From contig OZ316892.1 in assembly GCA_973895155.1 (NCBI GenBank), positions 9,466,283 to 9,530,282 of the forward strand: DNA of 64,000 nucleotides. The letters run 5' to 3'. This stretch comes from Marsupella aquatica (lineage: Eukaryota; Plantae; Marchantiophyta). Both the position numbers and the translations under genes were made by a program. Position 1 is the stretch's first letter, and every line of letters begins with the position of its first letter. The notes beneath the pieces are model-generated. The model ran no database searches. It was not told the DNA's origin and worked only from the letters and a program-made list of their open reading frames with translations. This document shows positions 7,211 through 35,969 of this stretch, one piece after another.

Positions 7211-7950
7211 GTATCTAGTAGGCCTAGACCTGCGGCATCAGCACCTTATGTCCCATCACAAGGTGTTCTAGATGCTATAGGCAATGCATTCTCACAAGCC
7301 TTGGGTCCAGCAACAGCCCCCTCCAGTCCTAGGGCAGTTGGGGGTGAGCCTGTTGTCCCAAGAGGGAGAAAGCGTTCCAAGAGACGGCCCCGAGGGGATA
7401 CTGATTTGTACAAGGCAGTGGTTACCGGTAGGTGGGGTGATTGTGAGTTTACTGGCAGATGTGTTCCTATCATCAAGGACTGGGATCCCCAGACTCTTGG
7501 TTTGCCACAAGAGCTTTCCTATGGTGAGGAGGTAGAGGTTTGGGGAAGACGTTGGGTTATCAAACCTTCCACACTTGGGGATAGACATGGCTATGGAGTT
7601 TTTGCTTGTGAAGACATCATTGTGGATACCGAGAGTGGTAGTGGTGGACGTGGTCGAGAAGGACCTACGTTGTTTCCTTATGGTGGACCCATCTACAAGA
7701 GAAGACATTGGAACATGATCCTTGCACAACATCCTGAGTGGAAGACTTATGCCTTGGAGTTAGATACTTTTGATGGAAACACTAGGAGGTATAGTGAGCA
7801 GCGGGTGATAGATGGGGACCCCATACGAACTGGGAATATAGCTGGTTTCATAAACAGTACTGTGGGGACTCGCCCCAAGCGTAGGCAAAATTGTGAGTGG
7901 GTTTTCATTGAGGGTCCTCCACCAGCCCCTTATGGCCATACACATGGCGT
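7211..7950 (+). pseudogene. SET-domain exon of CACTA-A (C-terminally truncated)
   Basis: Motifs GYGVFACEDI, LFPYGG and IDGDPIRTGNIAGFINST...NCEW. Acceptor AG at 7209-7210 is in frame with exon 1. Lacks the IRAGQELFCDY end seen in CACTA-C. Confidence 0.8.
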
Positions 7951-10900: not shown

Positions 10901-13628
10901 TTAAGATAAGTGTGTTTTTCTCTTTTGGTATGAAAGGTTCCTCATAACATGATTAGTGTTTTTTGTGTAGTAGTAACAATATATGGGTCTTGTTAATTTC
11001 AGGATTTCTTCCCTAGATGAGAAGAGGGCTCGTACTTTTGATTGTGGAGTTCAAGGGCAGTTTTGTCAGGACTCCCGGAGTAGCCGACATGACAGGAACA
11101 TTGTTCGTGATGTTGTGCCACACTATGGGAAGATAGAGGAGATTTTGGTGGTCTCATATGACAACCAATCTAAGTTTGAGGAGTATGTCTTCAAGTGCAA
11201 GTGGTTCAAAGTGAACCTTGTTGGTAATAATCGCACTGTACTCCAAGATGAGAGTGGGTTTACACGGTTGAGGATGAGGTGTTTACAAAAGGCAGTAAAT
11301 AGCAAACAACAAAATATAATAGGAACTGGTAACAGCAAAATTTCCTGTTTTGGGAGCACATTTCTCCTGGTATTGTGGCAAAATTAAAAAAATCCGTTCC
11401 TAAAATACTGATAATTATGCGATGCCAAATATTAGCGCCGGGAGTCTACAGGAAAAATAATCACAAACGCATCATGCCGAATACTAGCGCCGAGCGTTAA
11501 AACCCAAAATAATGACACATTAATCGCCCAAACATGCCGAATACTAGAGCCGGCCGCTTCCAATTCTTTGTGCAGAAAATCACGAGAACCTAGGATTGAT
11601 GTTCAGGCTGAGATCCAAGTAGAAACCAAACATTAATAATAGTCTAAGTTCAATATCAAAGCACAGAGATGTAGGACTTAACCAAGGTATCTGAGTCATA
11701 ACTTCTAAAGGGAAATTGAAAGAAAAGAAACCCGAGATTTTTTATTTAAGTGAAACATATTGTCCTCGGTGTACAAATATTTCTACTTAGGAACACTAAA
11801 GTTTCCAGAACAATTGTAACTAGCGCCAGGCGCTAACACTCCCGGTGGGTGCCTCCTCGTACAATGTCCTATCTCGAAGAGTGACATTCATCATCAATCC
11901 CAGAGTCCTGACAATCTGGATCTTGGTGGAAACCATCTAATTGGAAGTTGACATATGCTCTCGTGGGCCGTTGATAAACTGGCCTTCCATGGAATCGAGA
12001 AGGAGAAAAATGAGAGAAATGGACTTTGAAAGAAACAATAGTATGTCAATAAGGGGCTTGGATTTATCGTTATAGGTCCTCTTGTCGGTACTAGTCTTTG
12101 AGTGAAAGCCAAATGACACTAGGGCGGAAACGACAAATATCAAACGGAAGCTTCCGACGTGTTTTTTGGGTAGCGGCGGGCGCCAATTAACCAAGCCGAG
12201 GAACCCACACAAAGGACGGTACTCAAGACCACATTAACCATTGAATGGAAGGGGCAACATCCCTAAAACTCAATTCATTTTTAATAAATTCAATAGCGCC
12301 CGACACTAACAAAAACCAAGGGCATACTCGTACAGTTGGGAGGAAGTTTGACCTGAGAGAGGAGAAAATTGCTACCCTTCAGAGTCAGATTCTGAGCTCT
12401 CATTCTGGGAGCTATGAGATCTGTCAGTCGACTCTGCCTCATCATCAATATACTTTCTTCTAGAAACATCATCTACGTAGGGGTTCCTCATGAACTTCCT
12501 ATCTACTCCCCTAAGAAGCCTAAGTCCTTTTGTTTCCCAGTAGAGCGTTCTAAATTTCTCTACCTTCCTCGCGACGTTCTCAGCGTATGATGGCAACACA
12601 AACGGCTTCTCGGGAGTGATGATTACATTTCGAGCCACTTTCCTCCGGAGTTGAAACCGTTTTCTTTGGTTCCATTCTGACCTGCTCAAAAGAGAAGCAG
12701 AAGAGAAAGAGGAAGTAAGTACTTAACCGATAGAACTGGCGGAATTGAAGATTAGCCAACAATTGAAAGGATAAAGGAGCTTACGAGAGACGAAAATTAC
12801 TCGGAAGACTCTTCGCTGTCCTCCGTTGACCCATCATGTCGGGTTTCCTCTTTCCCGCCGTCATTGACATCCTCAGGAACATCATCTTCTGGCGTCCCAT
12901 CATCTTCGTCCGAATCAAAGTTGAGGACAGATCTAAGTCTATCTTTCTTTTTTCGTCCGGTTATTTGAGGAGGGGGAGGTTGTGTCTCCAAAGGTTTGGG
13001 AGAAATGAGGTCCAAAAAAATCCTCGAAGTGGTCTCAACAAACTCCCGACGATTTTCTAACCCGATGACAAAATGGCCCGAGTAATCCCCAGCAATGAAC
13101 GTACTACCTGAGCCAACGGTCCAATCAATTACAATATCCTTAGGTATTGTAAAGAGTTCAAGGACAGTTTGCATAAAACCAACCGGCAATCGGGAATTCC
13201 CAGTAAAATGGAGTTCAGGACAATGATCTTCCTTCAAAGATTGTAGCCCAATAAGGTTCGAGATTGAAGGATCTTCAGCGCTAGATAATGGCTTGAATCT
13301 TGGATCCTTTGGGACCTTTCCTTTAAAAGAAAATCGACAAAATATGTCCAGTCTAAGAGTGAAGACCTGCAAAAGTTGACGAACCAACTGGATTTCAAAA
13401 ATCTTTTACTCATGAGAGAAGACCTCCTAAGAAAGAAAGAGTAGCGTCGGGCGCTAGTATAGCTATACTGAGAGAGAACATTTACCTGGACATCTGTCTT
13501 GGATCTGTACATTGGGACAGACATGAAAACGTTGTGCGTATTGATGCACATGAACTTCTTGGATTGCTGACATGCAGAAATGACCTGGGAAATCTGATCG
13601 TGGTCATCCGAGTATAAGATAGCGAGCA

Positions 13629-14103
13629 TGTTGGGTATTTACTCTTACGTCTAGGTTAGGTATGACGTGGTTGGTACAACAACGTGGGTTGGTACAACTA
13701 CGTGGTTAGGTACAACTACGTGATTAGGTACAACTATGTGGTTAGGTACAACTACGTGATTAGGTACAACTATGTGGTTAGGTACAACTACGTGATTAGG
13801 TACAACTATATGGTTAGGTACAACTATGTGGTTAGGTACAACTAAGTTGCACACTATATCATAAGAGGCATGTGTGCTTGGAGAGGTAGAACCAAGGCTC
13901 ATTGTTATGGAGCCACTTGAGAGATAGGGAGAGCTTACACTGTGGAGACTCGGTATAGCCGACGGGCTTAGAGTTCAGTAAAGCTCTCTTGTGTGTTCCC
14001 GTGGACGTAGCCTCAAGGAGGTGAACCACGTATCTCTTGTGTCGACTATTGTGCGTTGGATGGTTCATGGGCTTGCCGTTGCGATCGTCGTCTATGCTCA
14101 ACA
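13629..14103 (+). repeat. 5' LTR with internal 18-bp tandem array
   Basis: TGTTGGG...CTCAACA; near-identical to 18956-19430; (TGGTTAGGTACAACTAYG)n at about 13667-13845. Confidence 0.97.
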
Positions 14104-14105
14104 AT

Positions 14106-14117
14106 TGGTATCAGAGC
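14106..14117 (+). promoter_or_regulatory. Primer binding site for initiator tRNA-Met
   Basis: TGGTATCAGAGC 2 nt after the 5' LTR. Confidence 0.95.
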
Positions 14118-14555
14118 ATGCTTGGGAGGTGACGTGTGTTCGTGACGGGATTTCATGATGGTTTTTCCAGCGTTGAGTGTTGGTGGATTATCCAGAGTTC
14201 CATCGCATGGAACTTGGAGTTTATGGGCTCAACGGATAGATCAGGGCAAGAGCTTTCTAACGGTGTGAAGAAATCGTTGAACGGAGCTCGTGGTGCAGAG
14301 AGATCTAAGTTTTCGTCGTTCTGGATTTTGTGAAGAAAGTTGGCAATCGACTCGGAGGGAGAAGCGTCAAGTGTTTTGACTCAACGGAGAGATTGAGGCA
14401 AGACGATTGTTTTTGAGTCCGGGATTGGCTCTTTGATGCAAAGAGGAAGGCTAAGCAAAATCAATTACCTTGTTGGACTTGGTGACGACACCAAGTGCAA
14501 TTGATCAACATTCGTTGTTGACAAGGGGCAGAGAGAGGAGCAGGAGGAAGAGCAC

Positions 14556-15491
14556 GTGACACCGATACCATCACCGGTGCGGCGTGTGGTGGAGGAAGCA
14601 GTACTACTACCGGAGCTCACGGTAAAGAAGAAGATGGGGACTTTCAAGCTTGGGGGACCCAAGTATGAAGTGACAAAGTATGATGGGCGCTCTGACTACT
14701 TGCTATGGGAGAAGCAAGTGAAGGGAGTGCTTTATGCGTCAGGGATGGGCCAACTGCTGAGCCCTCGTGAAGACGATGTTGATGAGAAACAATGGGACCG
14801 CATGCAGGAGCAGGGAGTGTGGTGTGTTACACTCTATCTCATGCCTCCCATCATCAAGCAGTTAGGTGCACATAAGGATTGCATGTCCTTGTTTGCGGAA
14901 TTGCAGAGCAAGTATCACCGCAAGGAGTTGTCGAACCGGCTCTACACTTCCTACAAACTGATGAGTTTCAGGATGAAGGAATCTGGTACGAAGTTGCAAG
15001 ACCATGTGGATGCTTTCAACGACATGGTCGTTGACTTGGAAAACCTTGGGGAGACTTTGAATGATGAGACGAAGGCTCTGCAGCTTCTTAGTTCATTGCC
15101 TCCACCTTACCAGTCCCTATCACGAGTGTTGTTGCATCGTGATAGGGATACCATTTCATACAATGACGTGGTAAGTTCTCTGCTTAGTGATGATCTTCAG
15201 CAGAAGATGCACATCACGTCACAGCCTTCATCATCTGGAGTTGCCCTCAATGTTAACCGTGGGAGGAGTATGCAGCGACCAACTGGGGACCGTAGAACCC
15301 AGTTTAGATCTAAATCCAGATCTAAGTCCAAGGGTAAATCCCCTCAGAGGAGGCAGGTGACATGTTGGAAGTGCAACCAAGTTGGACACTTCAAGCGAGA
15401 CTGTAAGGGAAAGGCAGCGGAAACTTCATCGGCAAATGTGGCTAGGGCTGATGGAGAAGCTGATTTACTCAATGATGAGTATGTTTTATGA
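14556..15491 (+). CDS. gag: Copia Gag (likely start ATG at 14635)
   Basis: KYDGRSDYLLW motif, UBN2-like core and zinc knuckle CWKCNQVGHFKRDC. Confidence 0.93.
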   Translation: MTPIPSPVRRVVEEAVLLPELTVKKKMGTFKLGGPKYEVTKYDGRSDYLLWEKQVKGVLYASGMGQLLSPREDDVDEKQWDRMQEQGVWCVTLYLMPPIIKQLGAHKDCMSLFAELQSKYHRKELSNRLYTSYKLMSFRMKESGTKLQDHVDAFNDMVVDLENLGETLNDETKALQLLSSLPPPYQSLSRVLLHRDRDTISYNDVVSSLLSDDLQQKMHITSQPSSSGVALNVNRGRSMQRPTGDRRTQFRSKSRSKSKGKSPQRRQVTCWKCNQVGHFKRDCKGKAAETSSANVARADGEADLLNDEYVL

Positions 15492-18400
15492 AGCCGGGGG
15501 TATGCCCTGTGCACGTCATCTAGGAGAGCAGATGATGTGTGGATTCTTGATTGTGCTTGCTCTTTTCATATTTGTTACATTCGTGAGTTTTTCAGTTCTT
15601 ACTCTGTTTCAAACGGTTCAGTTCTGATGGGAAATGATCACTCCTGTCAAATTGAGGGAATTGGGTCTGTGAAGATTCAAATGTTTGATGGCGCTGTGCG
15701 CACAGTGTCCGGAGTCAGGTATGTACCTGGCATGCGTAAGAATCTGATTTCACTCGGTGTGTTGGATTCAAATGGTCATCAATGGAGCGTTATTGATGGT
15801 GAACTTCAAGTCAGGTCGGGAGAGACAGTGATTTTGAAGGGGAGTAGACAAAAGAATTTGTATGTGTTACAGGGCAATACTGTATGTGGAGAGGCCAATG
15901 TAACCAAGTCTCACGAGGAGATGACTCAACTGTGGCATTCACGGCTAGGCCACATGAGTGAGAAGGGTTTGGCTATCTTACGGAAGAATGGACTCATTTC
16001 TGATTTGCAATCTTGTAAATTAGAGTTTTGTGAGCATTGCATTCTTGGAAAGCAACATCGTCGTGCTTTTGGTGTTGGAACTCATCGTTCCAAAGCGGTT
16101 CTTGAGTACATACATAGTGACGTGTGGGGTCCATCCCCGACTCCCTCACACTCTGGAAAGTTGTACTATGTATCATTTATTGATGATTACTCAAGATTTG
16201 TGTGGATTTATTTCATGACGCATAAGTCTGATGTCTTGTCCATTTTTAAGAAGTGGAAGGCCCAGGTGGAGAATCAGACTGGAAACACGATCAAGTGTTT
16301 GGATACAAGGGTGAAGAGTCTGAGGTCAGACAACGGCGGGGAGTACACTTCAATGGAATTTGAAGAGTACTGTTCAGAACAGGGGATAACTCGCCATCTC
16401 ACCATAGTTTATACTCCGCAGCAGAATGGTGTCGCTGAGAGGCTCAATCGGACACTGTTGGAGCGGTCACGGAGTATGTTGAGCCAATCAGGTTTACCAC
16501 AAGAATTTTGGGCAGAAGCTGTCAATACCGCAGCTTATTTGGTAAATCTTTCTCCTTCTAGTGCTATCAATTTCAAAACGCCGTTTGAGATGCGCTATAA
16601 GCGGCAAGCAGACTATCATGGCTTGGTAATTTTTGGAAGTGATGCATATGCTCTCACACCAAAGCAGAATAGGACCAAGTTGGATCCTACCTCCAGGAAA
16701 TGTGTTTTTCTTGGGTACCAGAGTGGTGTGAAAGCCTATAGGCTATGGGATCCTATTGCTTGTAAGCTCGTTGTCAGTAGGGATGTTTCCTTCAATGAAT
16801 CCAGATTATTGAAGGAGGGGGAGAATACTCAGGTCTCCCGTACTGACAAAGGAAAATCTCCTATCCCGGATCTCGTTGAGGGGGAGATTGGTTATGAGGT
16901 GCATGACCGGAGAGAAGGAGTTGCTCCAATTATGGAGTTGGTTCCTATGCCAGAGGAACCAGAGGAGTTTGTTGATGCTGGTGAGCAACAAGTGGATGCT
17001 GTTGAGCTTCAAATTGTACCAGCACACGCAGATCAACCGGAGTCATCGGCTAGAAGAACATCTGGTCGCACTGTACGCGCTCCATCAAGGTATGGACAGT
17101 GGGTTGATTCATCTCAACTGCAAGAGGATGATTTTACAGCTGATGATGAGGGTGATGCGTTAATTTTGGAAGAAGGAGAACCTTCTTCATTTCATGAGGC
17201 AAGTGCTTCAAAAGAGAAGCAGAAGTGGACTGCAGCAATGCAAACGGAGATGCAGTCACTAAAGGACAACAAAACTTGGGAGCTTGTTAAGCTGCCTAAG
17301 GGTCATCAAGTGGTGGACAACAAGTGGATTTACAAGCTGAAGAATAATTCCATAGGAGGTGGATCGAAGGTCTACAAGGCTAGATTGGTAGCAAAGGGAT
17401 TCACACAAGAGAAAGGTGTGGATTACAATGAGGTCTTCTCACCAGTTGCTAAGTACTCTACAATACGACTATTGTGTGTACTTGTTGTAATGTTTGGTCT
17501 GCTCCTAGATCAGATGGATGTTGTCACAGCTTTCCTCTATGGCACATTGGAAGAGGTGATCTTCATGAGACAACCGCTAGGTTTTGTGAAGAGAGGACAG
17601 GAGGAATTGGTTTGCAGATTGCTGAAATCCTTGTATGGGTTGAAGCAGTCACGAAGACAGTGGAACAAGCGGTTTGACGATTGGATTCGGTCACAAGGTT
17701 TTCACAGAAGTGTATTTGACCCTTGTGTGTATTTGAAACCGGTGAAGAATGTTGTCTTTGGGTTCATTGTTTTAGTACTTTATGTGGATGACATGCTAAT
17801 TGCAGCCAAGGATAGGTCTGAGATTGTTAAGCTCAAGGCACTGCTTAGTGCAGAGTTTAAGATGAAGGACTTAGGGCCAGCTAAGAGGATTTTGGGTATG
17901 GAGATCACTAGGGACTTGGAGGCTGGCAAGCTATGGTTGACGCAGAGCAGTTATGCGAGGAAGGTAATTGCAAGGTTCAACATGGAGAATAGCAAGCCAG
18001 TAAGTACCCCGTTGGCTCCACACTTCAAGTTATCATCAACGTTCTGTCCTACGGATGACACAGAGAAGGGGTTGATGTCAAAGGTTCCATATGACAAGGC
18101 AGTGGGGAGTCTCATGTATTTGATGACTTGCACTAGACCTGATCTTGCCATGGCTATGGGCAAGGTGAGCAGGTACATGTCGAATCCAGGGAAGGTACAC
18201 TGGGAAGCAGTGAAGTGGATTATCAGGTACTTGAAGGGTACCGTGGATCATGGTCTTTTATTTGATGTGAATGCAAAGAATGCTAGATCATTGATTGGCT
18301 ATATAGATTCTGACTATGGACAAGATTTGGACCGAAGGAGATCAACAACAGGATACGTGTTCACACTTGGCGGTGGATGCATAAGTTGGAGGTCTACTTT

Positions 18401-18764
18401 GCAGAAGTGTATTGCTCAGTCTACTACAGAAGCGGAGTATGTTGCAGCTGCGGAAGCAGCAAAGGAAGCGATTTGGTTGGATAGACTTATCACTGAAATG
18501 GGATTGCCACAGGGGAATGTGAAGCTCCATTGTGATAGTCAAAGTGCGCTCCACCTTGCTGTGAACCAGGTGATGGACAGCAGAGTGAAGCACATTGACG
18601 TCAGGTACCATTTTATCAGGCAGGCTGTGTCTGATAAATTGTTTGAGCTAGTCAAGATTGATGGTAAACTCAACCCGGCTGACGCATTTACCAAAGTGAT
18701 TCCTTTGGAGAGTTTCTCTAGACACCGTGACGTATTGCAGGTTTTGCAATTGCATCACAAGTAG
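15492..18764 (+). CDS. pol: Copia Pol (protease, integrase, RT, RNase H), same frame as gag after a single TGA
   Basis: Motifs WILDCACSFH, WHSRLGH..CEHC, HSDVWGP, RSDNGGEY, QQNGVAER, YKARLVAKG, LYVDDM, DSDY, KHIDVRYHF. Confidence 0.97.
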   Translation, partial: SRGYALCTSSRRADDVWILDCACSFHICYIREFFSSYSVSNGSVLMGNDHSCQIEGIGSVKIQMFDGAVRTVSGVRYVPGMRKNLISLGVLDSNGHQWSVIDGELQVRSGETVILKGSRQKNLYVLQGNTVCGEANVTKSHEEMTQLWHSRLGHMSEKGLAILRKNGLISDLQSCKLEFCEHCILGKQHRRAFGVGTHRSKAVLEYIHSDVWGPSPTPSHSGKLYYVSFIDDYSRFVWIYFMTHKSDVLSIFKKWKAQVENQTGNTIKCLDTRVKSLRSDNGGEYTSMEFEEYCSEQGITRHLTIVYTPQQNGVAERLNRTLLERSRSMLSQSGLPQEFWAEAVNTAAYLVNLSPSSAINFKTPFEMRYKRQADYHGLVIFGSDAYALTPKQNRTKLDPTSRKCVFLGYQSGVKAYRLWDPIACKLVVSRDVSFNESRLLKEGENTQVSRTDKGKSPIPDLVEGEIGYEVHDRREGVAPIMELVPMPEEPEEFVDAGEQQVDAVELQIVPAHADQPESSARRTSGRTVRAPSRYGQWVDSSQLQEDDFTADDEGDALILEEGEPSSFHEASASKEKQKWTAAMQTEMQSLKDNKTWELVKLPKGHQVVDNKWIYKLKNNSIGGGSKVYKARLVAKGFTQEKGVDYNEVFSPVAKYSTIRLLCVLVVMFGLLLDQMDVVTAFLYGTLEEVIFMRQPLGFVKRGQEELVCRLLKSLYGLKQSRRQWNKRFDDWIRSQGFHRSVFDPCVYLKPVKNVVFGFIVLVLYVDDMLIAAKDRSEIVKLKALLSAEFKMKDLGPAKRILGMEITRDLEAGKLWLTQSSYARKVIARFNMENSKPVSTPLAPHFKLSSTFCPTDDTEKGLMSKVPYDKAVGSLMYLMTCTRPDLAMAMGKVSRYMSNPGKVHWEAVKWIIRYLKGTVDHGLLFDVNAKNARSLIGYIDSDYGQDLDRRRSTTGYVFTLGGGCISWRSTLQKCIAQSTTEAEYVAAAEAAKEAIWLDRLITEMGLPQGNVKLHCDSQSALHLAVNQVMDSRVKHIDVRYHFIRQAVSDKLFELVKIDGKLNPADAFTKVIPLESFSRHRDVLQVLQLHHK

Positions 18765-18944
18765 AGTTTTCTTAAACATTCATTGTAATTACTGATATAT
18801 GCTCTTCCTCATTCCTATGTATTAGGCTACGGCTTAGTTCTGGTTTGCTCTAGTTAGAGAGGGAAACCGGTTTGGTTTCTGTCCAGAACTTCCCGCTGAG
18901 GGATCATATACATTGGCAGTATTACTCTCCCCTAGACCAGAGTC

Positions 18945-18954
18945 AAGGGGAAGA
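18945..18954 (+). promoter_or_regulatory. Polypurine tract
   Basis: AAGGGGAAGA just before the 3' LTR. Confidence 0.85.
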
Positions 18955-18955
18955 T

Positions 18956-19430
18956 TGTTGGGTATTTACTCTTACGTCTAGGTTAGGTATGACGTGGTTG
19001 GTACAACAACGTGGGTTGGTACAACTACGTGGTTAGGTACAACTACGTGATTAGGTACAACTATGTGGTTAGGTACAACTACGTGATTAGGTACAACTAT
19101 GTGGTTAGGTATAACTACGTGATTAGGTACAACTATGTGGTTAGGTACAACTATGTGGTTAGGTACAACTAAGTTGCACACTATATCATAAGAGGCATGT
19201 GTGCTTGGAGAGGTAGAACCAAGGCTCATTGTTATGGAGCCACTTGAGAGATAGGGAGAGCTTACACTGTGGAGACTCGGTATAGCCGACGGGCTTAGAG
19301 TTCAGTAAAGCTCTCTTGTGTGTTCCCGTGGACGTAGCCTCAAGGAGGTGAACCACGTATCTCTTGTGTCGACTATTGTGCGTTGGATGGTTCATGGGCT
19401 TGCCGTTGCGATCGTCGTCTATGCTCAACA
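18956..19430 (+). repeat. 3' LTR
   Basis: Same length as the 5' LTR; only about 2 substitutions seen by eye, both in the 18-bp array. Confidence 0.97.
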
Positions 19431-22400
19431 GAGCATTCCGTCATCGGAAAGGAAAGGGTCCATTGCCCGAAAGAATGATTCGGCTGCTGTGTGATCTGTG
19501 ACATTCCATTTCGGGACCCGACGGTCAACAATTGTGGGTTTCAAACCAGTTGGGAGATAGATGAAACCCGCATTCACCCCAAATGATCGTTCCTTCCCAC
19601 CTCGAATGATTCCTTTATCTCTACACCCCGATTTGATCAAATCCTTACCCCACTTCTCAGCGTCTGAGACCCAATCTGGCTTCTCTTCCTTACTAAATGC
19701 ACTATCAATAAATTCTGCCAAGCTTGATTCAACCATACAGTGTCTTTTGAGTTTGGTCTTGAAAGTCCCCACATCCCGTTGGATACCGGCCCTAGAAGCA
19801 TTATCTCGCGAAGATTCCCAAACATCGATGGTCCTTTTCTTCTTCTTCTTTGTGCTTGTAGCATCCACAGGAACTATAACCTTCCCCTTCTCAACAGGGG
19901 TGATGGGGTCTGGATTGGCACCAGTGTTGGCCTCAGAGACTTCTGGTGTTGCATCGACTTTTGTGTCATCCGTGGCGGCATCAGATTTTCGACCACCTAC
20001 CCAAAATGGTGTCAAGCATAGAAAGAGTGTTAGCGCTAGGCGCTGACCAAACACCCACATTAATTTTGGGAAATAAGACACATTAAACTCACGACACATG
20101 ATAGCGCCAGGCGCTAACAAAGAAGGAAGTCGGAAAAAGGAGGTGTAGATTACGTTTTTTCCCAGACTTGGCACTAGCACTTGCCACAGGGGCATCCGCC
20201 TTGGCTTTGGCTCTTGGTTTTCGGCTTCGATCAACATCAACCACTGTGGTTTCGCATTTTTTTTGCAACTCAGTCGTCGACGAGTTGACGTCCCCCTCAA
20301 TTCCTTGCTTCATGTCGGAGACAAATTGTCTCGGAACTTGGGATTTAGACAGTTTATGGAAAGCATCCTTCTCAGTGTCGTCAAAAGGAGAATCCCATCT
20401 GTCGGTGTCAAGATACCAATGGCAGTGAATTCTCTCCCACTCTAACAATTTCCTCGGTGGAAGTATACCCTCAGCCGGATACATCGAATACAGTTCGGCC
20501 AAAATGTCTCCATCTGCGCAGATGACCCAATTCTGGAAAGCAGTTGGGTAAGCCCAAAAATAGTCAGGCTTCACAATCTCCATGTGCATGAAGAAACGAT
20601 AGACATATCGTTTCGCTTGCTTTTGATTCTTGAGTGTGTAGTCTTCCTTGTCCGGGTACTTGGACATCCACATCGTATTGAAAAACTTACCTTTCACTGC
20701 ATCCCCAAATTTTTTGAAATCATTGCACACTATTTCAACGAGTGAATCATAAGACTCACACTTCCATTCCTCCAATCGATTGGAAGGAATTATTTCACTG
20801 ATTTGCTGGAGGGCAGTCTGCAGCATACCAATAGCAATTCCCTCCACGCTATTCCAAGTTTGCCAAGTGTGGCACCACTACTTCACAGGGTCATCACTAA
20901 CACTTTGTGGATGAAAGAACTGCTTCCTGAGCTCTGGCGTGCAATGCGCTACTAACAAAGTGCTCCTCACTTTGGGGTCGAGGGCGGAGACTGCTGTAAA
21001 TAACCTAGCACGATCCATGGTACAAACAACCGCATCCGGTTTCTTCTCGCGTTTGTTCACCTCGGTCATCGGATACATCTCAGCACAGGTTGTCATGAAG
21101 TCTTCAAACTCTGGACTCAACAAGGGAGTGATCTTTGAGACCTTGATCGCCCAATCTTTCGTTGCTTCTTTCATCATGACCGCATGTCGTTTGGATGTCT
21201 CTTCCTAAGACCAAGGATTTCCCTGAGCGGTAGCCGACTCCATGTCCATCTTGAATTGTCGAGAATAGGATTTAATCTTATTCTCGCATAAGATATACAA
21301 AAGTGCTTCTTGAGGCATTTTCTTGGAATACCATGATCCTTTTCGAGTCTTCTGCATCACCTGCCCAAACTTCTTGAAGTTTGCCCCATCGATGATTGAT
21401 TTGTAGTATTCTAGATCGTTGGACAAAATCCTCTTAATTCGGTCTGCATCAAGTATCCAGGAAGGTTCCACCACGGCCTGTCCAAGTCTACAGAAGAATT
21501 TGTCAGTCAATAGCGCCAGGCGCTAGTAAAACTACGCTATAAAAGATAAGGATAAGTGAAATTCAACGAGAGACTTACTGGTTCACAGTATGCATAGCCG
21601 CCTCAATTTCAATCAAAGATCCCTTTTCACCCTTGAAGATAGTACATTGCACACGCGGGTGATACTTGATATCTTCCGGATTTTCTTTCGTAACGATCGA
21701 CCATGCGTAAAGTCGATGGTTACCGTCAAAAACATAAAACATCTTATCTTGTAACACCATGAAGTCTGGATCGGCCGCACATTCAGCTTCAAACTTCTCG
21801 TTCTCGGCCACCCACATCAGGTCCCAGGAAGCTCGAATTTTTGGAGTACATGTCTGGACATTTCCATTCGAATCTGTCGGCTGGACATAGAACAACATTC
21901 CGATTTTTGAGTTGTATCCTGTGCTACGAAAAGAGTCCTTCAACTTTTCAATTGAAGGACTTCCCTTCTGTAAGGTGCGGACAACTTCCATGTGAACCAA
22001 GCGGCACATTGGAATCCTTGGGGGGTCTTTGTCGTGCCCTCAAAAATCTTTGCCAAACACCATAACGTGCTTGGAGATAACGTCGGACATCGTCAGCGAC
22101 ATTTCTCCTCGATCTTCCATAGCGTATGTGTCAAGATCGTCCATCTTTGCTCTCCTGCTCTTCGGAAATGTGACTACAGAGACTATTTCGGGAGCTTGGG
22201 ATGTTGTAGACCTTGTCACTCGACGACTGTAAACAGATCCAGAAAACGAGCACTCGGATGTCTGCGAATGGATCTGCTCTCTATGCCCGTTAGCACTATA
22301 CCCATGCGAGGTAGTGGGGAGAAGGTCCATGTTTCTCAGACACGAAGTGCTTCACGATCGTGATGAGTACCTCATTCATACCGTACTTCTTCTAGAGAAT

Positions 22401-23283
22401 TCTTGCATGAAGAACCTCCGAAACGGAACCTAAATACAGCGCACAAGGGAGGGGGGGAGAGTATCATCTCTAAACTATCCCCTTGCTACATTGATATCTA
22501 TCTCTTGAGTGCCACTTGTCAATTCTGGATTAGTTGTCCGAATACCGTTGGCATATCTTCGACGTTACGCGACCTAACGTTACCGTTGAATATGACCGTT
22601 AAAGAACAATTCGTTGAATTTAATATATATTCCTAGTTCAAATCTGATATTGGTCAATAGTAGCGCCATGCGCTACTCAAAATCATCAGAATTTAAACCA
22701 TAAAATTTCCCAAAGTTAGGTCAACATTCACCCTCAAGTTACAATAAAAATCCAAATGAATACAATTTTTGAATATTTTTCCATAAATGAATGTCATGAT
22801 TACCGTTTTGGATTAGCGCCCGACGCTAATATTAAATGGGCACATTTTGGTAATATTTTAGATAATATTAAAAAAATTAGCTACAAACATTTAGTATTTA
22901 TTCTGAAACCCCGGATAAAACATTCCATTTTTATACCATAATTTACGGTGTGTGTTTGAGTAGCGCCTACTCATATATTTCACCATTTTGGGTCCATGTT
23001 GAAGGTAGGATGTTTGAGTAGCGTCGGGCGCTACTCAATTAACATGATTTAATTAACATGATTATGCTCTTTGGAAATGGACATCTTAGGCTCATTAGTG
23101 TAAATGTCGTTGACATAACGACAAAAAACATTTATTGTGTCAGATGTGCTTTCGACCGGTAGTGTTTCTGTCGTATTATAACGGCTCTGACAAACGGATT
23201 ATTCACTATGAATACCATTGTGTACATTCGAAGACGTCATTCATTATTGTGAACTAAGTGTTTTTGGGTTGGATGATCTTAAA

Positions 23284-26200
23284 ATGTCAAGGTCAATCGT
23301 TCTGACGCGTCCGTCTACCGGTGACCTTGTATCCATTCCATTATCGGCCAATGACGTATACAAGCAAGTTAGTGAGAATTATCTCTGTGGGCGCTTTGGT
23401 TTGCATTTGAACGACATTGAGGACATTTTGGAGGAGGGAAATGGAGATGAAGCGTCTAATTTCACTGCTTCTTTTGATGTTGATGACGGGATTCGTTTTT
23501 GGCACCTGAATGCAGGAATTCGGTATTCTATTGTCATTCAAAAACCAGTCGCATCCGATCTCCCATCTTCATCCAAACCCTTTGTTGATGTTATCCTGCT
23601 TTCAGATAGCGACGATGATGGACCTGCTTTGCCTGAGCGTAGTGCTAAATCCCCTCACACCGTTGTTAAACAGGAGGTTACCCCTGTTAAACAAGAGGTT
23701 ACAGCAGTTTTTACCAAAAATTCCATTGTGTATCGGAGAAGTGCAATGGATACCATTCTCAAGTCAACTGGTTCCAGTGAAATCTTGAGGTTCATCGCGG
23801 CTGGGGACTTCTTCCATGAACAAGTTGACTGTTTGCCAAAGAAATACATTGATGGAAATATTGTATTCGAGTTGCCTCCTGCGACGGCAGCTCTTTCGAA
23901 GGGGTCACGTCTACGCGACATGGACCGGTCAAAGGATTGCTACATCTGGACCAGAATATTTCCTACATCAGCTAATGTTCATCCCAAGAAATATTGGGAA
24001 TTTGGTAAAGTAACGTGCACTGGTTCCATTGAGTGTAGGAATAATACGTGCGACTATTTTTAGTGGAAGAAATGGAGGAACCAGAAGGCCTGGGGTGGAA
24101 CCCCCAAACTTGGCGGGCAACATCGTGTTGGCTCCTTCATTGACGAAGGTGGAGTTGTTTGCCAATTTTGTGATCAAGTTCCATTTTGTGTCCAATCCTG
24201 TCGAGCAAGGTTATTTTACATGTACCCCCAGGTTCTAGTTGACTCAGAAACCAATACTCACATGTCCCGCTTGGCAATTCATATGGGGATCCACAACCAT
24301 CCTTCAAGAAAGGTGTTTTCTCGGAGCGCAGAGAAGATTGTTGAGGAGGTTATCAAAAAGAAATTGGAAGGAAATCCAATTTTCACCCCTGCTGGTGTAA
24401 AAAATGTGGCGACAAGGTCCTTTGTAAAGTCCTTGTGTGAAAGTATGGAAGATATTCAAGATATTGAAGAAACAGAGATATTTGAGTCTCTCATGGTAGT
24501 TTCCACACCCCAGAAGTTTGCGTCCCTCTTTCGTAGTGTTAGACAGGACCAGAAAGGTCGAGGTGAACTAGATTTTCTTGTTCGGTATCAAAGAAATATC
24601 AACATGCCTTTCCTCCAAAGGTACCTCCTACCAGGTCAAGGATCTCAAGAAGACCGTCCTCACATATTCAAGATGACTTCGATCGGCCATGGATCAGGCG
24701 TCGATCTTTTGAGACAAATGCAACCTGGTGGAAGTCTCAAAGGTGCTTGGGTAAGTTTTGATGTGATGAAACGGCTTACAAAAGACTGGGTTACTTTTAG
24801 TGCGCATATTTATGATCACAACTATCGCGCTCTATGTACCTTATTCACCTGCGAACTAAAAGCAGAGGATACAGAGTCGTTCAAGAAGGCTTGGAGACTA
24901 ATGATTGAGGTGTCCAAAGAGAATGGATTAGAAAATCCGATTATTCATGGATTCATGGCGGACAATGCTCAAGCTGGTTGGCTGGCAGTCCGAAATGTCT
25001 TTTTTGGAGGGCATCCAAACCCTGAGCATGAGCGAACTGACGCATTCCATTTCTACCAAGCCTTCCATCGCCATTCGATTGAAGGAGTGATTGAAGATAG
25101 TCAAGCAGAGCATCGTAGGCTTTGGGATAAGATGCGAAATGCCCCCACGTTTGTAGAGGCTTACAGAATTTCAAGGGAGATTGATTTGTGGTGGCAGTCG
25201 GGTAACTGTGTCCCCGGGAAGCTCCGGATGCTCCAGAGTTGGATTTCATGGTGGGTCGTCAGGTGGAGACAATGGGGAAATTTTATTCGTTTGGTAAGTT
25301 AGTTTACTTTGCTTTCCGCTCTTTAGGTATTGCAGTGCTATATTCTCATTTCAAAATGTTTGTATCCATATTCAAATATTACAATACCATAGCATCCTTT
25401 AATACTAGCGCCTGGCGCTATCATTTATTCAAACTGTCATATGACACAATAGGACGAAATAATTTGTCCCTTAATGTACAGTGCCAGTTTTGACTTCTAG
25501 GGACAGAGTCCACTTCACTAGCGCCCGACGCTAGTGTTTTCTTGTTCTGTAACAAACACTTTATTCTATGTGATTGCAGAACAAGAGTGTCAAAGAAGGG
25601 GCTAAGATTCCTAATTGTACAGGATCAGAGTCCGTGCACGCAGGTATGAAAGCATGGGTAATGAAGAAAAAGGTTGGGCTCTTTGAGGCATGTGAAATGG
25701 ACCAAAATCGAGCTATTTCTCAGGTTGCTGCTTACACTGCGTATCGGAAAGGGTTGCATAGAGGAAAAGGTCCCACAATTTGGGAACTCGCTTTCCGATC
25801 AGCGGACCAAGCAGGCTCCCCCAAGTTGTATGAAAACGCAATGAATATGCTACTGTCCAACGCTGCCAAGTTTGACTTGGAGAGACATGCACCTCTCAAT
25901 GGAGACGTTGTCACCAAGTCTTTGAAGAGGAAAGGACATGCATCTGGGAATATCTCACCACAAGACTCCCATAGGCATGATAAAATCCTTGTCACCTCGC
26001 CCAATACTAGATCGATGAAAAGGAAGAATCTTAATCGCACGGCGTTTGATGCTATCCCTGGCCCCATGCCTCAAGTTGATCCTGTTGTTAATTTGTCTGG
26101 AAGTGACATATCGGGCGGTGGAGAAGATGTTGATTTCAATACCCCTCCTGCTCGAGACCGAACGCGTTCAACGAGGCTTCCCCAGACTGCTCCCTCCGTG

Positions 26201-27106
26201 CTTCAGTAACCGTTACAAGAGTGTCCTGTCCGTGAGACGGAGGTTGCTCTAGCTGCATGGCAATTACGTCGAACTTCAAAATTTGGCGCTGGTCCTCAGT
26301 GCAACGGATCATTTTCCCGTAATTCTGAAAGAGATGAGTGTCGCAATCGCGTGAAAAAAGTTGGATTTCCCTCACCACATGGTGTTATCGGAATTGTTGT
26401 CAAAGGTCAACGGATTTTCAGGGGGGAACCCATAACCAAAATGATTTGGTTTTGCCCAAACAATACATGTTACAGAAGCCGCCCGCGTCGAGGTGTCTTG
26501 AATTTTCCCCCTTTCCCTCATGTTCTTCCCGTTTTGAAAGGGACAAATATTTCGAAGGACGAGCTGCAATATCTTCTTGACAACGGAATCTCCCTAGTGC
26601 GCGGAAATGAACTTACAACTAGACCCCCGTCAGATTTTGATCTTCGAATCAATGTCAATATCTTTATAGAACATGTGAATCTTCTCAAACCCAATGTTCG
26701 TCTCCGAAGCCGGAATGGGAGGAATATGGTTCCTCGGTCAAATCTTACCCAGGGTCACATGAACAGAATTGCGTTTGCAAAAAAACAGACGATGTATATT
26801 CAGGGAGAGTGGGATGTTGCGATTGGGAATGCATGGGGAAAACAGTTTAAAGTGCAAACGCACGAAAATATGCGGACGCCAAATTGTTACTTTGTTCAAA
26901 TTTGCATTTTCCCCACTTGCTCGTGTGAGGATTTCTACCGGCGACATTCCCGGAAACATCCATATATGCCTTGCAAACATTTGTATTGGATTTTCCTTAC
27001 CGTTTTCAAACTAGACGTTGAGGAATCTACATTGACCAGCCAACCAATTCTCATTGTTGGAGAGGTTTGGCTCATATTAGAGAGGCAAAATGCTCATCAT
27101 TTATAG
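23284..27106 (+). pseudogene. MULE-type DDE transposase with N-terminal WRKY/GCM-like Zn finger and C-terminal SWIM (exons about 23284-25293 and 25580-27106)
   Basis: Motifs CQFC..C...IHMGIHNHP, VSFDVMK (D1), FMADNAQAGWLAVRNVF (D2), DAFHFYQA (CxxH position), GSESVH (E) and SWIM CSCEDF..PCKH. Listed ORFs join in frame across stops at 24061 and 26207 and a GT-AG intron at 25294-25579. Confidence 0.8.
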
Positions 27107-27649
27107 CATGAATCATGATGATGTAGGTTGTATTATTGGTCAAAACGGTTATATTGATTTTGTCGTATGTCAACGGTATAGTGTTATTGATGTCGCGTCA
27201 TGTTTTGTTAGCGCCAGGCGCTGGTAAATTTTTCGTCTAGGCTACACCGTTAAATGTCATTGTGTTGTGATTTATGTTCTCAACGCCAACTATTTGTTTC
27301 CTTGAATAACGATAAGATAGCGCCACGCGCTAGTCAATCCGTTGTTCGCTTTTATTTTGGACCACATAATGACATAAAGTTTTGGGCTGCGTTGATTTTG
27401 TATTATTTTCATATATTTTGTTGCCGATTGTGGTGGGACCTACCATTTTGTGCGCATTCCTTAACATTTTTATGTATGCTCCCCCTTGTTTGTGTTGGGA
27501 TATAAGGTTCAATTATTATGTGGTTCAGCAATTCATTACAAGGTATCCTCCCTCACCGCAATGGACTAACTCCAACTTCAACAATTCTAAATTGCTGATT
27601 GTGTGTTCTTTCCCCTGGTACAAGATGTTTTTTCCTGGTAACAGCATAA

Positions 27650-27678
27650 GGCAAACAGGAAAAGTATTTCCTGTTTGC
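27650..27678. other. Subterminal hairpin of the MULE
   Basis: GCAAACAGGAAA-agta-TTTCCTGTTTGC, a perfect 12-bp stem about 20 nt from the right end. Confidence 0.8.
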
Positions 27679-28907
27679 TGTCTCCGTCGCTATACCCTTG
27701 AGGACAAGTGCCACTAGTTTTCAAGCATCTCATTGGCAAACGTCAGAGCCATTTACTTTCCCATCTCACTTGGAGCAATGTTTCTACGTTCCATACCCCT
27801 TAGACCCAGAGTGGTCACTTGTCATCACATATGTGCCACGGTCTCGTTCCATTGTTTCAGACAAGCCAGACACTATTTTTGTGTCAGATGTAGAGGACAT
27901 TGAAGGTGACCAAGTGTGAGAGACACTTATGGATATTTAAACCAAAAATCTATATCATGGATTGTTCATGTTGTTTCTTAATTAATATTTCATACACCAT
28001 TAGTGTGGTAGGTATTTTCATTTTGGACTCCTACTTTCAAAAGAGGTCATGCATATAAGTGACATGGGTACTCCCTCCCTTATCCCTCCTCCCTCTTTGA
28101 ACCCAAACTCTCCTTCCTCTTCCAAAAACTCCATAGCTTTTTCTCCTCCCTCCCTCTTCGCTAAAGTCTCTCCTATTTTTAGTAAACCCTCTTTGGACTC
28201 CCTTCTTCCTCTGTCCCTCATCCACCTTCCAACTCCCTTCCTCCCTCTTTCACCTTTCACCTCCCTCCCTCCTCCTCCCCCATTCAAACTCTAACCTAGA
28301 TGCACACACAAGTCTAACATAAACGTTTGCGAACTGTTTGCGAAACTAAACAAATCCCAACCAAATCGCAATTCTGCCATTTAAACCGTTTCTCAATTAT
28401 TCCATACTATACGCTTCACTATTTTGCGATATCCAGACCATCTCACCTTTACCATCCACATCGTTTCGCACATTTGCCATACAAACCCATCGCAAATTGT
28501 TTGAAGCTAACCTTTTCGCAAACATCCTCCAATACTAATTGTTTCGCATCATTAATGTTACCGTGGTTTCGGACTTTCAGCGCGGTCGCGGAGCCTTCGT
28601 AATGTGTTTTGTAATCTCTGTAGTTTCGCAAAATATTGTGATACAATAAAGTTCCCAAAATGTTTGCGATGCAAATCGCATGGAAGACCAAAGTTGCGAT
28701 ACCACAAGTATCGCAAATTGCGATGCGTATTGAGTCATCAACGGTTTGAAGCATCTGGAATCGCAAACGTGTGTCCGGACGCAAATGAGCTTCGCAAAAG
28801 GGCAAAATATGTTGTAGTGAATTTGCTCGTCATGCATATGCAAGTGCATTTGCTCAACTTTTCAATGTACATATTTTCTGAGTGAAAGCATGTGTGTGCA
28901 TTGCAGG

Positions 28908-31900
28908 CGGGGCCTCTGAGATGCGTAGGGAACGAAGGCATGCTAAGAAGCAGTTTGATAATGCTGCCAAAGTACAAAGGAATCAGGGAGATTTGCCCAA
29001 ACACATTAAAGTGAGTATTGTACTTTTTTTGAATGTAGATTTAGACATAGATCCTCTCTGTTATTGTGTGTATAAAACTTGGACTATGCATAAATTCCAG
29101 AGTTATGAATTGACATTGCATGTGAAATGCAGATTTATGACAATGATATTGATGATTCTGATCCCAACAAACAGTACTGGTTGGAGGAACTTCGTGGCAA
29201 TGTACTCAGAATCTTTGAAGTATCAAAGCCAAAATGGACTGATCATCCACGAGTTCATGTAACCAGTGTGTGGAAGAACATGGTAGCTGAGTGGGAGTAT
29301 GTGGGTGGGGAATTTATTGACAACAAATTCCAGAGTCATTGTCGTGGCATATTGAAGAGAGAGCGCCATAAAATGCATGTTTACTGGAAGAAAGTTTGCA
29401 ATGAGGATCCAACCAAACCTGGGCCATCTGGTGTTGATCCAAAGAAATGGGCAGCTTTGGTATCTCATTTCACCAGTCCAGCATTGATATCTTTGAGTAA
29501 ACAGATGACTGATAAAAGAGCACGAGTGCAAGATACCAGTCACTTTGGTAGAGGAGGGCATGCTGCAGCAGCAAAGAGAATGGTAAACTGTCTATATCAT
29601 TTTCACTATCAATTCTGTCTTGTTTGTGAATCTTGATGAAAATAGACTCTGAGTTTCTCATTCATTGTGTGTTTGAACAGAAGCAGAAGAGAGGATCAAG
29701 CCCAGGTATATCTGACCTGAAAGAAAACCTTGGTAGTCAGGGCTCATTGCCAAAGGTGACAATGAGCCCATCATTGGCAAGTGCAGAAGGTCAGACTGGT
29801 AGTTTTTTGGGAGCAAAGGTGAGCCCGTCATTGGCAAGTGGGGAGGGTAAAAGCCCTAGCTTATTGGGGCAAGGATACAGACATGGATCAGCTGTGAGTA
29901 TTGCCATTCCAATCTGATTTGTACATCATTTTCCATTTGATAGAGTGTTGTAACACGATTTCGGACCGACCGAGAAGTGTGTCGGAGTTCTCGTTTAGCC
30001 CGATCCTGTTTTTTTTCTAAGGCAATGCTATGACCGATAAAACTGGCAAAAACTCTCCGAAATGCCACTTTCCTCCATTGCATCGCCGCGGGAATGCAGG
30101 GAGCGATACGTGCATCGGGTTTTACATTCCGTCAGTGAAAAAGTACGAACTGCGAGTAACTTGGTCCGAACCGCGTAATCCAGGAACGACCACATACTAA
30201 CCCAGGTAAAGGGGAAACTTAACCATGGTTAAGGGGAAATTAACCATGGTTTAGAGCGTCTCCTATATAAAGAGGAGCGGGCTGCTCATAAAATGTTTGC
30301 TTTCGCTAGGGCAAATATCTCCTGACTGAGAGTGAATACCAAACTCCCATCGAGTCTTACATTCCTCCCAAGCGATTCGACTCTTTCTACCGAAAACCCA
30401 ATAAATTTATCGGAATAGCCATTCCTGTTCAAGTTCTCCATGTAAGACTAACTAGTCATTTAGTGTAAAATGTCCAGATCCGAGTGGACTGCGGTAAATT
30501 TATCGCATTCTGCATTTCTTTGTTGCAATCATTTGATCCAGTGTTTAGAGAGGTGTTGCCTTCATTCCGATAAATTTATCGGAGTCTTCATTCCTTTCAT
30601 GGAAAGAGGAGTAATTGAGAATCCGATAAATTTATCGGAGTTGTCATTTTTGTGATTGAATTCAGGGCTTAGGTATCTGAGGAAGTCATATTTTCAATTC
30701 GAATGCGGAGTGCGATAAACTTATCGCATCCTCCTGTGCAAAAAACTTATGGGCGATGGCCCTTTTATAGTGTCTGTTGAGGGGTTGGCCCATGTGTCCA
30801 CTTTTGATTGGCTGTCACCCTAAACGACAAAATAGCAGAAAAGGGTATATTTCTTGGATTTCCAATTTCATTCTCACACGTGCATCATGGCAAAATTATA
30901 TAGTTTTGAAATTGAAGCGATAAATTTATCTGATGTTGGTATTGCAAAAGTGGTTCCTTCATATGGAAGTTGCAATTTGAAATTGAAGCGATAAATTTAT
31001 CTGATGTTGGTATTGCAAAAGTGGTTCCTTCATATGGAAGTTGCAATTTTGAAATTGAAGCGATAAATTTATCTGATGTTGGTATTGCGAAGAGTTTTCT
31101 TCATATGGATAGGAATTTTGAAATTTAACCGATGAACCGAAGGATCTTAGTATTGTCGACTAGTATTTTTGTCGCCCGTAGTTTTTGCGATAATTTTATC
31201 GGACTGCGCATTGCTGTTGAAAGAATGGCATGTTGACTATGGTCACTTGTGGAGGTAACTGGTCAATTGCAGAGGTAACTGCAAGGTAAGTTTGACAAAC
31301 CGTGCAGTAATTCTTATCGACTGTGATGTAAAATATTTTTGGTAAATATCCAAAAACTGAGAAAACTGAGATTGGGTCGGAGCTTTCATGGCTCAAATCC
31401 GGAGTCCGATACAGTTATCGCACTTGGCTCGAAACATGGATATGGATTTATAGATAAGACCATTCATATATCTTCGGAGAGCGTGAATATGAGGTTGAGG
31501 AGAAAGTTTTTCGGATCTAATGGTTCCTTGATAATATGAATGTTTGTTAGCATGAATTTCATTGGTTTTGATCATTATTAAATTTGCTGTTTCAATCCGA
31601 ACTCCGATACGAATTACATTATTTCCCCAAAAATGTGTTTTTGATGAAAAAAACTGCCGATTTCGCGAGATTTGGCGGAAAATGAAAATACACTTCTCGT
31701 TTAGAGGAAATAGTTCTCGTTCGGTCCAAAATCGTGTTTTGTGTCGTTTGTTAGTTTGACAGTGAGAATGTTGTGTTGGTTTGTGCTTCATTTACAGACC
31801 CCACATTCAAAAGAAGAGATCACTGCCATTGGGGCTGTCAAATTGGATGTCGATGAGTTGAAAGGCACTGTGAAGGAGTTGACAAACATGATGACTATAT

Positions 31901-35560: not shown

Positions 35561-35969
35561 CTAGTTATCCTTACAACCCAAACATCCATTGACACCCCTT
35601 CCATGTTAACTTATGGGCACTTAACATACCTTAAATGTCGTTGTGGATATACAGTAACCTTGAAAAGCTAAGATTAAGTGCAAATTTTTAAAATTTTCTG
35701 GTCGCTAAAGTTTAAGTTCACTTAAACTTACATTTTTTACGCCTTTTAGTAAGATACGATCTTACGATCTTACGATCTTATTACCTTACGAGTTACGAAC
35801 TTACGCGGTACTAGAAGATTACGCCGTTGCAAGACTAATAGGCGGAAAGTACACTACGAGCCGCATCGCGTGAAATCTTACGACCAGAGCGAATCACTCT
35901 CTGCATGACTATTTCCGACGCTTACAAGCATCGCTCCGCTTCATCTGATCAGCATCCACCTCAAGATTT

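Follow-up and report, generated by a model that had tools for sequence, protein, structure and literature searches.

What is a protein with a ParB/sulfiredoxin (Srx)-type domain doing in a transposon of a liverwort? The question is raised by a stretch of 64,000 nucleotides from Marsupella aquatica (assembly GCA_973895155.1, contig OZ316892.1, positions 9,466,283 to 9,530,282 of the forward strand), referred to below as the window. The original prediction placed such a domain in an intron-containing eukaryotic transposon gene of this window, followed by about 450 residues of helical sequence that could hold the DNA-specificity domain, likened the gene to phage and bacterial ParB-methyltransferase fusions, and suggested modeling with cytidine triphosphate (CTP) and a CTPase assay as checks. 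The gene is the accessory gene of a MULE-type DNA transposon, and its product is predicted to consist of a ParB/Srx-fold domain, then a helical middle, and then a beta-class N4/N6-methylase-like domain. By its sequence it is a land-plant, MULE-borne form of a recently noticed transposon accessory gene, with candidate target sites. We favor, at a probability of about one half, the view that the protein would recognize its own element and counter silencing, in the manner of VirB and VANC.

The residues quoted in the prediction are real. The minus-strand frame 22039-21578 translates as PRIPMCRL...VRTLQ...IEKLKDSFRSTGY...FYVFDGNHRLYAW...RVQCTIF and forms the 3' part of the first of five exons. These are separated by four GT-AG introns of 91, 157, 119 and 119 nt, in agreement with the predicted spliceosomal introns, and amount to 3666 nt or 1221 codons, laid out as follows.

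21579-22330, minus strand: exon 1, low-complexity N-terminus and ParB/Srx-fold domain, with DGNHR at codons 202-206 and a premature stop at 22040-22042
20154-21487, minus strand: exon 2, helical middle region, the candidate DNA-binding part, with premature stops at 21205-21207 and 20878-20880
19436-19996, minus strand: exon 3, first piece, encoding a linker and the beginning of the methylase-like domain, whose motif IV is degenerate (IYLPTG)
13486-13628, minus strand: exon 3, second piece
12801-13366, minus strand: exon 4, encoding the rest (latter half) of the beta-class methylase-like domain, with the motif I region DWTVGSGST
12372-12681, minus strand: exon 5, C-terminal tail with the conserved P-x-K-x-F-x-LP-x-YAE, in frame

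The exon 1 frame is interrupted by a TGA at 22040-22042, a place that the homolog P0001 reads through, and the GT-AG intron 1 begins at 21578. Many homologous frames stop where exon 1 stops, and a GT donor is found there in the related loci L001, L004, L010 and L011; intron 1 is therefore old. The product is collinear with the 1207-residue Riccia protein P0193 (27% identity over about 1000 residues, E = 3e-79), and its exon 5 tail matches the C-terminal parts of six Riccia proteins and of L010. An early gene model that had only three introns and placed a stop inside exon 4 was dropped when the Riccia homology moved an acceptor to 13367 and revealed the fourth intron and the fifth exon. The copy in the window, with three premature stops and a Copia insertion in exon 3, is a dead pseudogene, and the value of the gene therefore lies in its family.

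The accessory gene and the transposase gene stand head-to-head in one element, of which these are the other parts, together with a fragment of a relative.

11275-27697: MULE-type element that lacks terminal inverted repeats and measures 16,423 bp with the Copia insertion, delimited by the host frame restored on its removal and by empty-site contigs
11268-11274, plus strand: left target-site duplication TTGAGGA, with the right copy at 27698-27704
13629-19430, plus strand: Ty1/Copia retrotransposon in exon 3, with 475-bp long terminal repeats (LTRs) showing 2 mismatches and the 5-bp target duplication GAGCA
23284-27106, plus strand: MULE-type transposase gene in two exons (23284-25293 and 25580-27106), 1178 residues with 2 premature stops
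1-1300 (end approximate), plus strand: 3' end of another, diverged member of the family (the second copy), with a transposase C-terminus that is 64% identical and with palindromes at 807 and 1022

The transposase frame of the CACTA host reads through once the MULE-type element is removed, and contigs of runs X1, X3 and X5 contain the empty site, joining 11267 to 27698 (X1 shares 7 letters). Thousands of contigs (85-100% identity) cover the stretch of the element, Copia included, in every bin; the element family is therefore multi-copy. Terminal inverted repeats were looked for at the element termini and rejected as its ends, none being found there, and the target duplication is 7 bp at most; a typical Mutator or MULE has long terminal inverted repeats and a target duplication of 9-11 bp. 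The transposase carries what we take to be the D..D..DxxH..E pattern and a C-terminal SWIM-like CxC..CxH. A Pfam search with it gave no match; in the ESM Atlas it led to MULE clusters (0.93-0.95), and the ten best named matches were all of the same family or clan. A related transposase lies on the opposite strand, in the same arrangement, at 9 of the 23 metagenome loci with at least 5 kb upstream (5 of 13 groups), a head-to-head linkage that is kept at about 30% identity. The Copia insertion, with LTRs that differ at 2 of 475 sites, is young.

Three minor observations belong here. The short motifs TTTCCTGTT and CTGGTAACAGCA occur at 11300-11350, 27620-27680 and 1245-1295, near both element ends and where the second copy terminates, and are candidate transposase-binding sites. 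An 18-bp tandem array is contained in the Copia LTRs (13660-13845 and 18990-19170). The CACTA element, at 2820-28819 (CACTA termini, target duplication AAT), contains the MULE element, which contains the Copia, making three nested insertions.

The ParB/Srx-type domain was borne out by structure. An AlphaFold model of the N-domain, made from 21 sequences (pLDDT 87.5, pTM 0.82), gave KorB, Srx, ParB and Noc as the top ten Foldseek rows (E 0.04-0.13, probability 0.75-0.96). The top 13 rows of a VIA structure search were KorB, sulfiredoxins, PadC, SerK, pNOB8 ParB-N, SbnI, Atu1540, SspE, BrxU, Spo0J, Dnd and Osa, the less familiar of which we take to be members of the same superfamily. KorB was the best match (Z 7.2, root-mean-square deviation (rmsd) 3.2, 95 aligned residues), in a search in which 7 of 48,161 chains reached Z 5 and unrelated chains gave Z of at most 2.4. 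It is because of this uniform list of superfamily structures, and not of single scores, that the modeled fold supports assignment of the N-domain to the ParB/Srx superfamily; the middling single scores are probably caused by an insertion of about 45 residues. A significant profile match, in contrast to the structural one, was not obtained. Pfam returned 0 families for exon 1 and no ParB_N among 25 homologs (one member matched DUF1015, E 0.019), NCBIfam profiles did not match the N-domain, and the PHROG 'ParB-like partition protein' reached E 0.01 at best, without significance. A sequence search of solved structures yielded noise alone (galectin-8 at E 0.6; a ribosomal protein), with nothing useful for P0193 or A7. 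As leads, the ESM Atlas offered DUF3723 clusters (0.94) and one further cluster (0.93) in which 11% of the members carry ParB_N.

Does the domain use CTP as bacterial ParB does? The GxxR phosphate-binding motif (Box II) is kept, with G in 95% and R in 86% of 175-177 rows. In ParB of B. subtilis, E78 and E111 are required for CTP hydrolysis (PMC8494293; here and below, sources are cited for the portions of them that were available). When mapped by motif order, not by superposition, the place of E78 (GERR) holds N in 99% of rows and that of E111 (ENLQR) holds I, L or V before an invariant N; both hydrolysis glutamates thus seem to be absent. The protein is not a canonical ParB CTPase, and nothing here supports CTP as the ligand or the CTPase activity that had been put up for assay. 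The choice of ligand by ParB folds is unpredictable.

The helical sequence that was said to follow the domain corresponds to exon 2 (1334 nt, about 445 residues), and its counterpart in a Riccia homolog is modeled as helical with high confidence. When KorB was superposed on residues 26-392 of a longer Riccia model, 195 of the 201 KorB residues, which comprise the N-domain and the next domain, could be aligned (Z 7.1, rmsd 7.5). A two-copy model of the Riccia homolog (residues 15-500, made without an alignment) left the fold uncertain.

The fusion to a methyltransferase was upheld as regards the fold, but not as regards the catalytic motif. The C-terminal domain matches Pfam N6_N4_Mtase (E 5.1e-07, 30.3 bits, cut-off 26.7) and the PHROG DNA methyltransferase (E 4.5e-08), and its Foldseek rows include CcrM, M1.HpyAVI and M.BceJIV (E 0.2-0.8). 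Its motifs are in the beta order, with the motif IV region at codon 841 before motif I at codon 1011; fold and permuted order support a beta-class N4/N6 methylase. In the catalytic motif, [DNSH]PP[YFW], the aromatic residue stacks on the target base (PMC4738411). The subfamily of the window has IYLPTG, which lacks the D, and contigs from four runs contain no variant of at least 10% at this codon. In Riccia the motif is D[LM][PS][ST]x in 19 of 19 covering rows (one cut short), in the form D[LM]P[ST]G, and in L010, L011 and L078 it is DYPE or DIPE, so that the aromatic residue is replaced by S or T in the former and by E in the latter. Motif I is variable (DWTVGSG, DFAGGWG, DWNASTG, DCHAMTG). 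Among the loci read, both methylase motifs are present downstream in L010 and L011 and the first of them in L078. All the relatives seen have a degenerate catalytic motif, so that 'methyltransferase' here denotes the fold, and by its motifs the protein is something other than a canonical methylase; Marchantia N4-methylcytosine (4mC) enzymes, unlike this family, retain TSPPY. The UniRef name 'trimethylguanosine synthase' carried by Riccia relatives was taken to be automatic and set aside, because those proteins match PF01555.

How widespread is the family, and is it maintained? A sequence search gave 29 homologs from 2387 candidates; 243 cluster representatives were found at E <=0.001, 150 of them among the matches listed. 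The survey of homologs that the original prediction had proposed placed relatives in Riccia and Adiantum: the ten long homologs looked up were from Riccia sorocarpa (seven), Adiantum capillus-veneris (two) and A. nelumboides (one). Metagenomes contained 80 loci with relatives, in 44 groups; these were picked by the DGNHR pattern and were left out of the test of motif conservation. Scans that need an exact short pattern gave 0 loci with a relative in viral contigs and 0 confirmed relatives, from 1 pattern match, in prokaryotic genomes. The expected conservation of DGNHR was found. All 21 rows of alignment A3 (A2 minus 4 short or truncated rows) have the motif unchanged, and among 175 motif-covering rows, which contain near-duplicates, 124 have DGNHR and 19 EGNHR, i.e. 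143 have [DE]GNHR. The last N of the N-domain is present in 124 of 124 rows. When exon 1 is compared with L001, the proportion of synonymous differences (pS) is 0.87, which is saturated, and that of nonsynonymous differences (pN) is 0.27; across both the ParB exon and the middle exon the values are 0.83-0.87 and 0.27-0.35. These values point to strong purifying selection on the two exons.

Candidate target sites are found in the non-coding DNA of the element.

11485-27332: palindrome TAGCGC-N3-GCGCTA, 15 copies, starting at 11485, 11821, 12171, 12294, 13442, 20031, 20102, 21511, 22661, 22814, 23019, 25406, 25519, 27209 and 27318

Counted with up to 2 mismatches, the sites lie in introns 1-3, the transposase intron, the intergenic region and both element ends. 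Shuffled sequences gave 0.07 (maximum 1 in 300) in place of 15. None of the 15 is in coding DNA, though this makes up 69% of the element without Copia, two more are in the second family copy, and the other 52 kb of the window contain none. A rule of one palindrome in every intron was rejected, since intron 4 has none. Related elements likewise carry family-specific palindromes in non-coding DNA. L001, with a domain 63% identical, has GAAGCC-N4-GGCTTC 12 times, in intron 1; L004 has AGGTGCC-N6-GGCACCT 17 times, upstream and in an intron; and L027 has TATTGGCG-N4-CGCCAATA 7 times. None of the palindromes of these three loci and the window occurs in the others' loci. A fifth, CCAAGC-N4-GCTTGG, was followed in 24 loci, and 35 of its 51 matches are within 2 kb upstream of the gene.

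Two other repeats of this kind were noted. Three copies of a near-palindrome, GGGCATAATGGCC, surround the related gene in L008 (at 174, 2643 and 2898). Outside the MULE element, at 30397-31224, a CGATAAATTTATCG-type palindrome is repeated several times; it may be the site proper to some other element.

The genes of the element also keep about twice the CpG of neighboring transposons. The ratio of observed to expected CpG is 0.77-0.79 in these genes and 0.64 in the second copy; for 11 other frames compared with them in the window it is 0.27-0.49. At codon borders, where most of the amino-acid bias is removed, C precedes G in 101 of 396 cases in the element's genes vs. 97 of 987 in the others, codons not being independent of one another. 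Relatives with little decay are also high in CpG (L010 0.86, L011 0.69). The pattern fits protection while the lineage was active, and it fits recent arrival from another host as well.

In the mechanism that we envisage, again with about one chance in two, the protein is a palindrome-binding dimer and a nucleotide-gated ParB loader that protects the element from CG methylation, the methylase fold being a non-catalytic part. The dimer would use its helical region to read both half-sites of a palindrome. Nucleotide binding by the GxxR motif of the N-domain would serve to close the protein on DNA or to load it there, by analogy with KorB and VirB, and probably little of the nucleotide would be hydrolyzed. 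The methylase-like domain, probably devoid of methylation activity, would hold cytosines, mask them, or bring in other factors. As a result, methylation would be lowered locally and the transposase transcribed, which is the effect of VANC on VANDAL elements; we know of no homology of the accessory protein to VANC. A more far-reaching version is put forward tentatively, as something that is probably not the case in full: that land-plant Mutator elements possess a eukaryotic parS/ParB system, in which a bacterial-type, nucleotide-gated clamp loads at family palindromes in introns, spreads along the element, and carries a dead methylase fold that shields CG sites.

A number of observations weigh against the anti-silencing reading. 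No structural score is better than middling (every Z is under 8 and every Foldseek E above 0.04), and across the helical region KorB aligns loosely (rmsd 7.5), short of demonstrating a helix-turn-helix. Among purified ParB-fold proteins, 17 of 28 bound no nucleotide, and such folds bind CTP, ATP, GTP or nothing, with no prediction of which from sequence (bioRxiv 10.1101/2025.10.10.680097); a phage ParB activator functions without its NTP residues. The palindrome consensuses were chosen after inspection of the data, and several arrays are tandem repeats (e.g. in L004 and L027), which inflates the counts. No array was found in L010, L011 or L078, which are near-whole genes with little upstream DNA, nor in most of the 47 loci scanned, many of which are short or decayed. 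No transposase is within reach at 14 of the 23 long loci. As for CpG, five long decayed loci have ratios of 0.12-0.35, mostly no higher than those of their flanks, the L004 gene has 0.64, the value of its upstream DNA, and the contrast, which comes from one window, could be due to the element having recently arrived from a host with less methylation.

Could the methylase be active after all? The protein would then be an atypical amino-methylase, loaded by its ParB domain, that writes 4mC or N6-methyladenine at or around the palindromes, and this mark would block 5-methylcytosine deposition by the host. The same proposal has been made for Ectocarpus (PMC12477816), 4mC enzymes occur in a liverwort, and the palindrome contains CG sites. 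The Pfam score is above the cut-off, motif IV precedes motif I in the beta order, and the D of motif IV is kept in all 19 covering Riccia rows and in L010, L011 and L078. In all these rows, however, the base-stacking aromatic residue is replaced by S, T or E, motif I varies, and the subfamily of the window has lost the D as well, with no variant of 10% or more in the contigs of the four runs. We consider an active enzyme unlikely.

It is likewise doubtful that the palindromes are binding sites for the MULE transposase which replace the missing terminal repeats, the ParB-methylase protein having some other job, such as help in assembly or general chromatin binding. An element that lacks terminal inverted repeats has a transposase in need of other sites; 6 of the 15 palindromes are between the 3' ends of the genes and the termini, and the second copy keeps TAGCGC-N3-GCGCTA beside a 64%-identical transposase. 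The other 9, however, are in introns and the central intergenic region, the arrays of relatives are upstream of or inside the accessory gene, and in red algae inverted-repeat arrays accompany a ParB gene on a different transposase superfamily (bioRxiv 10.1101/2025.02.11.637652). That the gene is a passenger, with palindromes arising from local repeat expansion and a CpG excess from recent horizontal arrival, is improbable: the L004 and L027 arrays are indeed tandem repeats and decayed copies elsewhere are CpG-poor, but the ParB and middle exons bear the marks of purifying selection (pS 0.83-0.87 vs. pN 0.27-0.35), the head-to-head linkage persists at about 30% identity, and the 15 sites of the window are dispersed singly in unrelated flanks.

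A ParB-methylase fusion has already been reported in algal transposons, in Ectocarpus and Bostrychia, with a function that is proposed. The Ectocarpus protein, from Sola1-1_Ec32, has 1104 residues with ParB-like and N4/N6 methyltransferase parts, is encoded opposite the transposase of a giant DNA transposon, and was proposed to bind and modify its own element (PMC12477816). When compared by description, the two genes are alike in that a single ParB-like and PF01555 protein of about 1100-1200 residues lies opposite a transposase (in the window, 1221 codons, head-to-head). They differ in the carrier, which here is a MULE in a land plant, and there a Sola element in a brown alga; the parts of the Ectocarpus account that are covered contain no palindromes, check of the catalytic motif or CpG signal (PMC12477816). 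In red algae, PAG3 of Plavaka elements has a ParB-like N-domain on DNA transposons with inverted-repeat arrays beside it (bioRxiv 10.1101/2025.02.11.637652). A ParB-like N-domain, inverted-repeat arrays and a PF01555 domain on the same elements are shared by PAG2/PAG3, which also occur on Chondrus Mutator elements, and the family described here. In PAG2/PAG3, unlike the present gene, in which the ParB and methylase-like parts form one protein, ParB is fused to a 2-oxoglutarate oxygenase and the methylase to a SET domain, in separate genes. No description of a ParB-methylase fusion in land plants was found in the literature, mostly open-access, that was searched; the curated element lists of the Bostrychia preprint may bear on novelty.

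VANDAL elements of Arabidopsis have degenerate terminal repeats (PMC10398659), and VANC21 binds a motif in their introns and intergenic DNA, from which hypomethylation spreads (PMC5735166). The resemblance extends to degenerate or absent terminal repeats, an accessory gene, and family-specific short motifs in intron, intergenic and terminal DNA (PMC5735166, PMC10398659). Unlike the palindromes, VANC motifs are 8-9 bp long and not palindromic as printed, and the function of VANC is demonstrated, whereas that of the accessory gene is inferred. VirB is a ParB-related, CTP-dependent anti-silencer. The N-domain shares with the KorB, VirB, ParB and Noc clamps its fold, the GxxR motif, a terminal helix with an invariant N, and the presence of palindromic sites; it differs from them in the insertion of about 45 residues, in N for E78 and I/L for E111 (by motif order), and in the lack of parA in the element. 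Phage and bacterial fusions of ParB to N6/N4-methyltransferases, which have the same domain order, are the likely ultimate source of the accessory gene. It is set apart from them by several hundred residues of inserted helical sequence, by its four introns and by its degenerate catalytic motif.

What is new here is the land-plant MULE carrier, with relatives in Riccia and Adiantum, the family-specific palindromes and the CpG footprint. The accessory-gene family provides matched pairs of protein and candidate site, with five palindromes, and exchange of sites or proteins would test the idea directly. If a clamp is formed as envisaged, a DNA-sliding ParB system would exist in a eukaryotic nucleus, and plant transposons would have a second route, after VANC, by which to escape methylation, with a possible use in targeted epigenome editing. 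If the tentative parS/ParB version were true, there would be sequence-programmed anti-silencing in plants that is independent of VANC and parallel to VirB of Shigella.

Some other features of the window may be mentioned. At 35747-38697 there is a frame of 815 residues, without a Pfam match, that has 8-bp TACGATCT-type tandem repeats on both flanks. Two long frames (477 and 741 residues) at 56980-60711, minus strand, are strongly CpG-depleted and have no Pfam match; to the eye they contain transposase-like acidic motifs, and they are probably another DNA transposon. In two CACTA elements, at 52179-52982 and 7211-8068, a SET-domain frame is found just upstream of the transposase; the first matches PF00856 (E 3e-06), and the second, without a Pfam match, is alike by eye. 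These frames bring red-algal PAG2 to mind and may represent a further accessory gene directed at chromatin.

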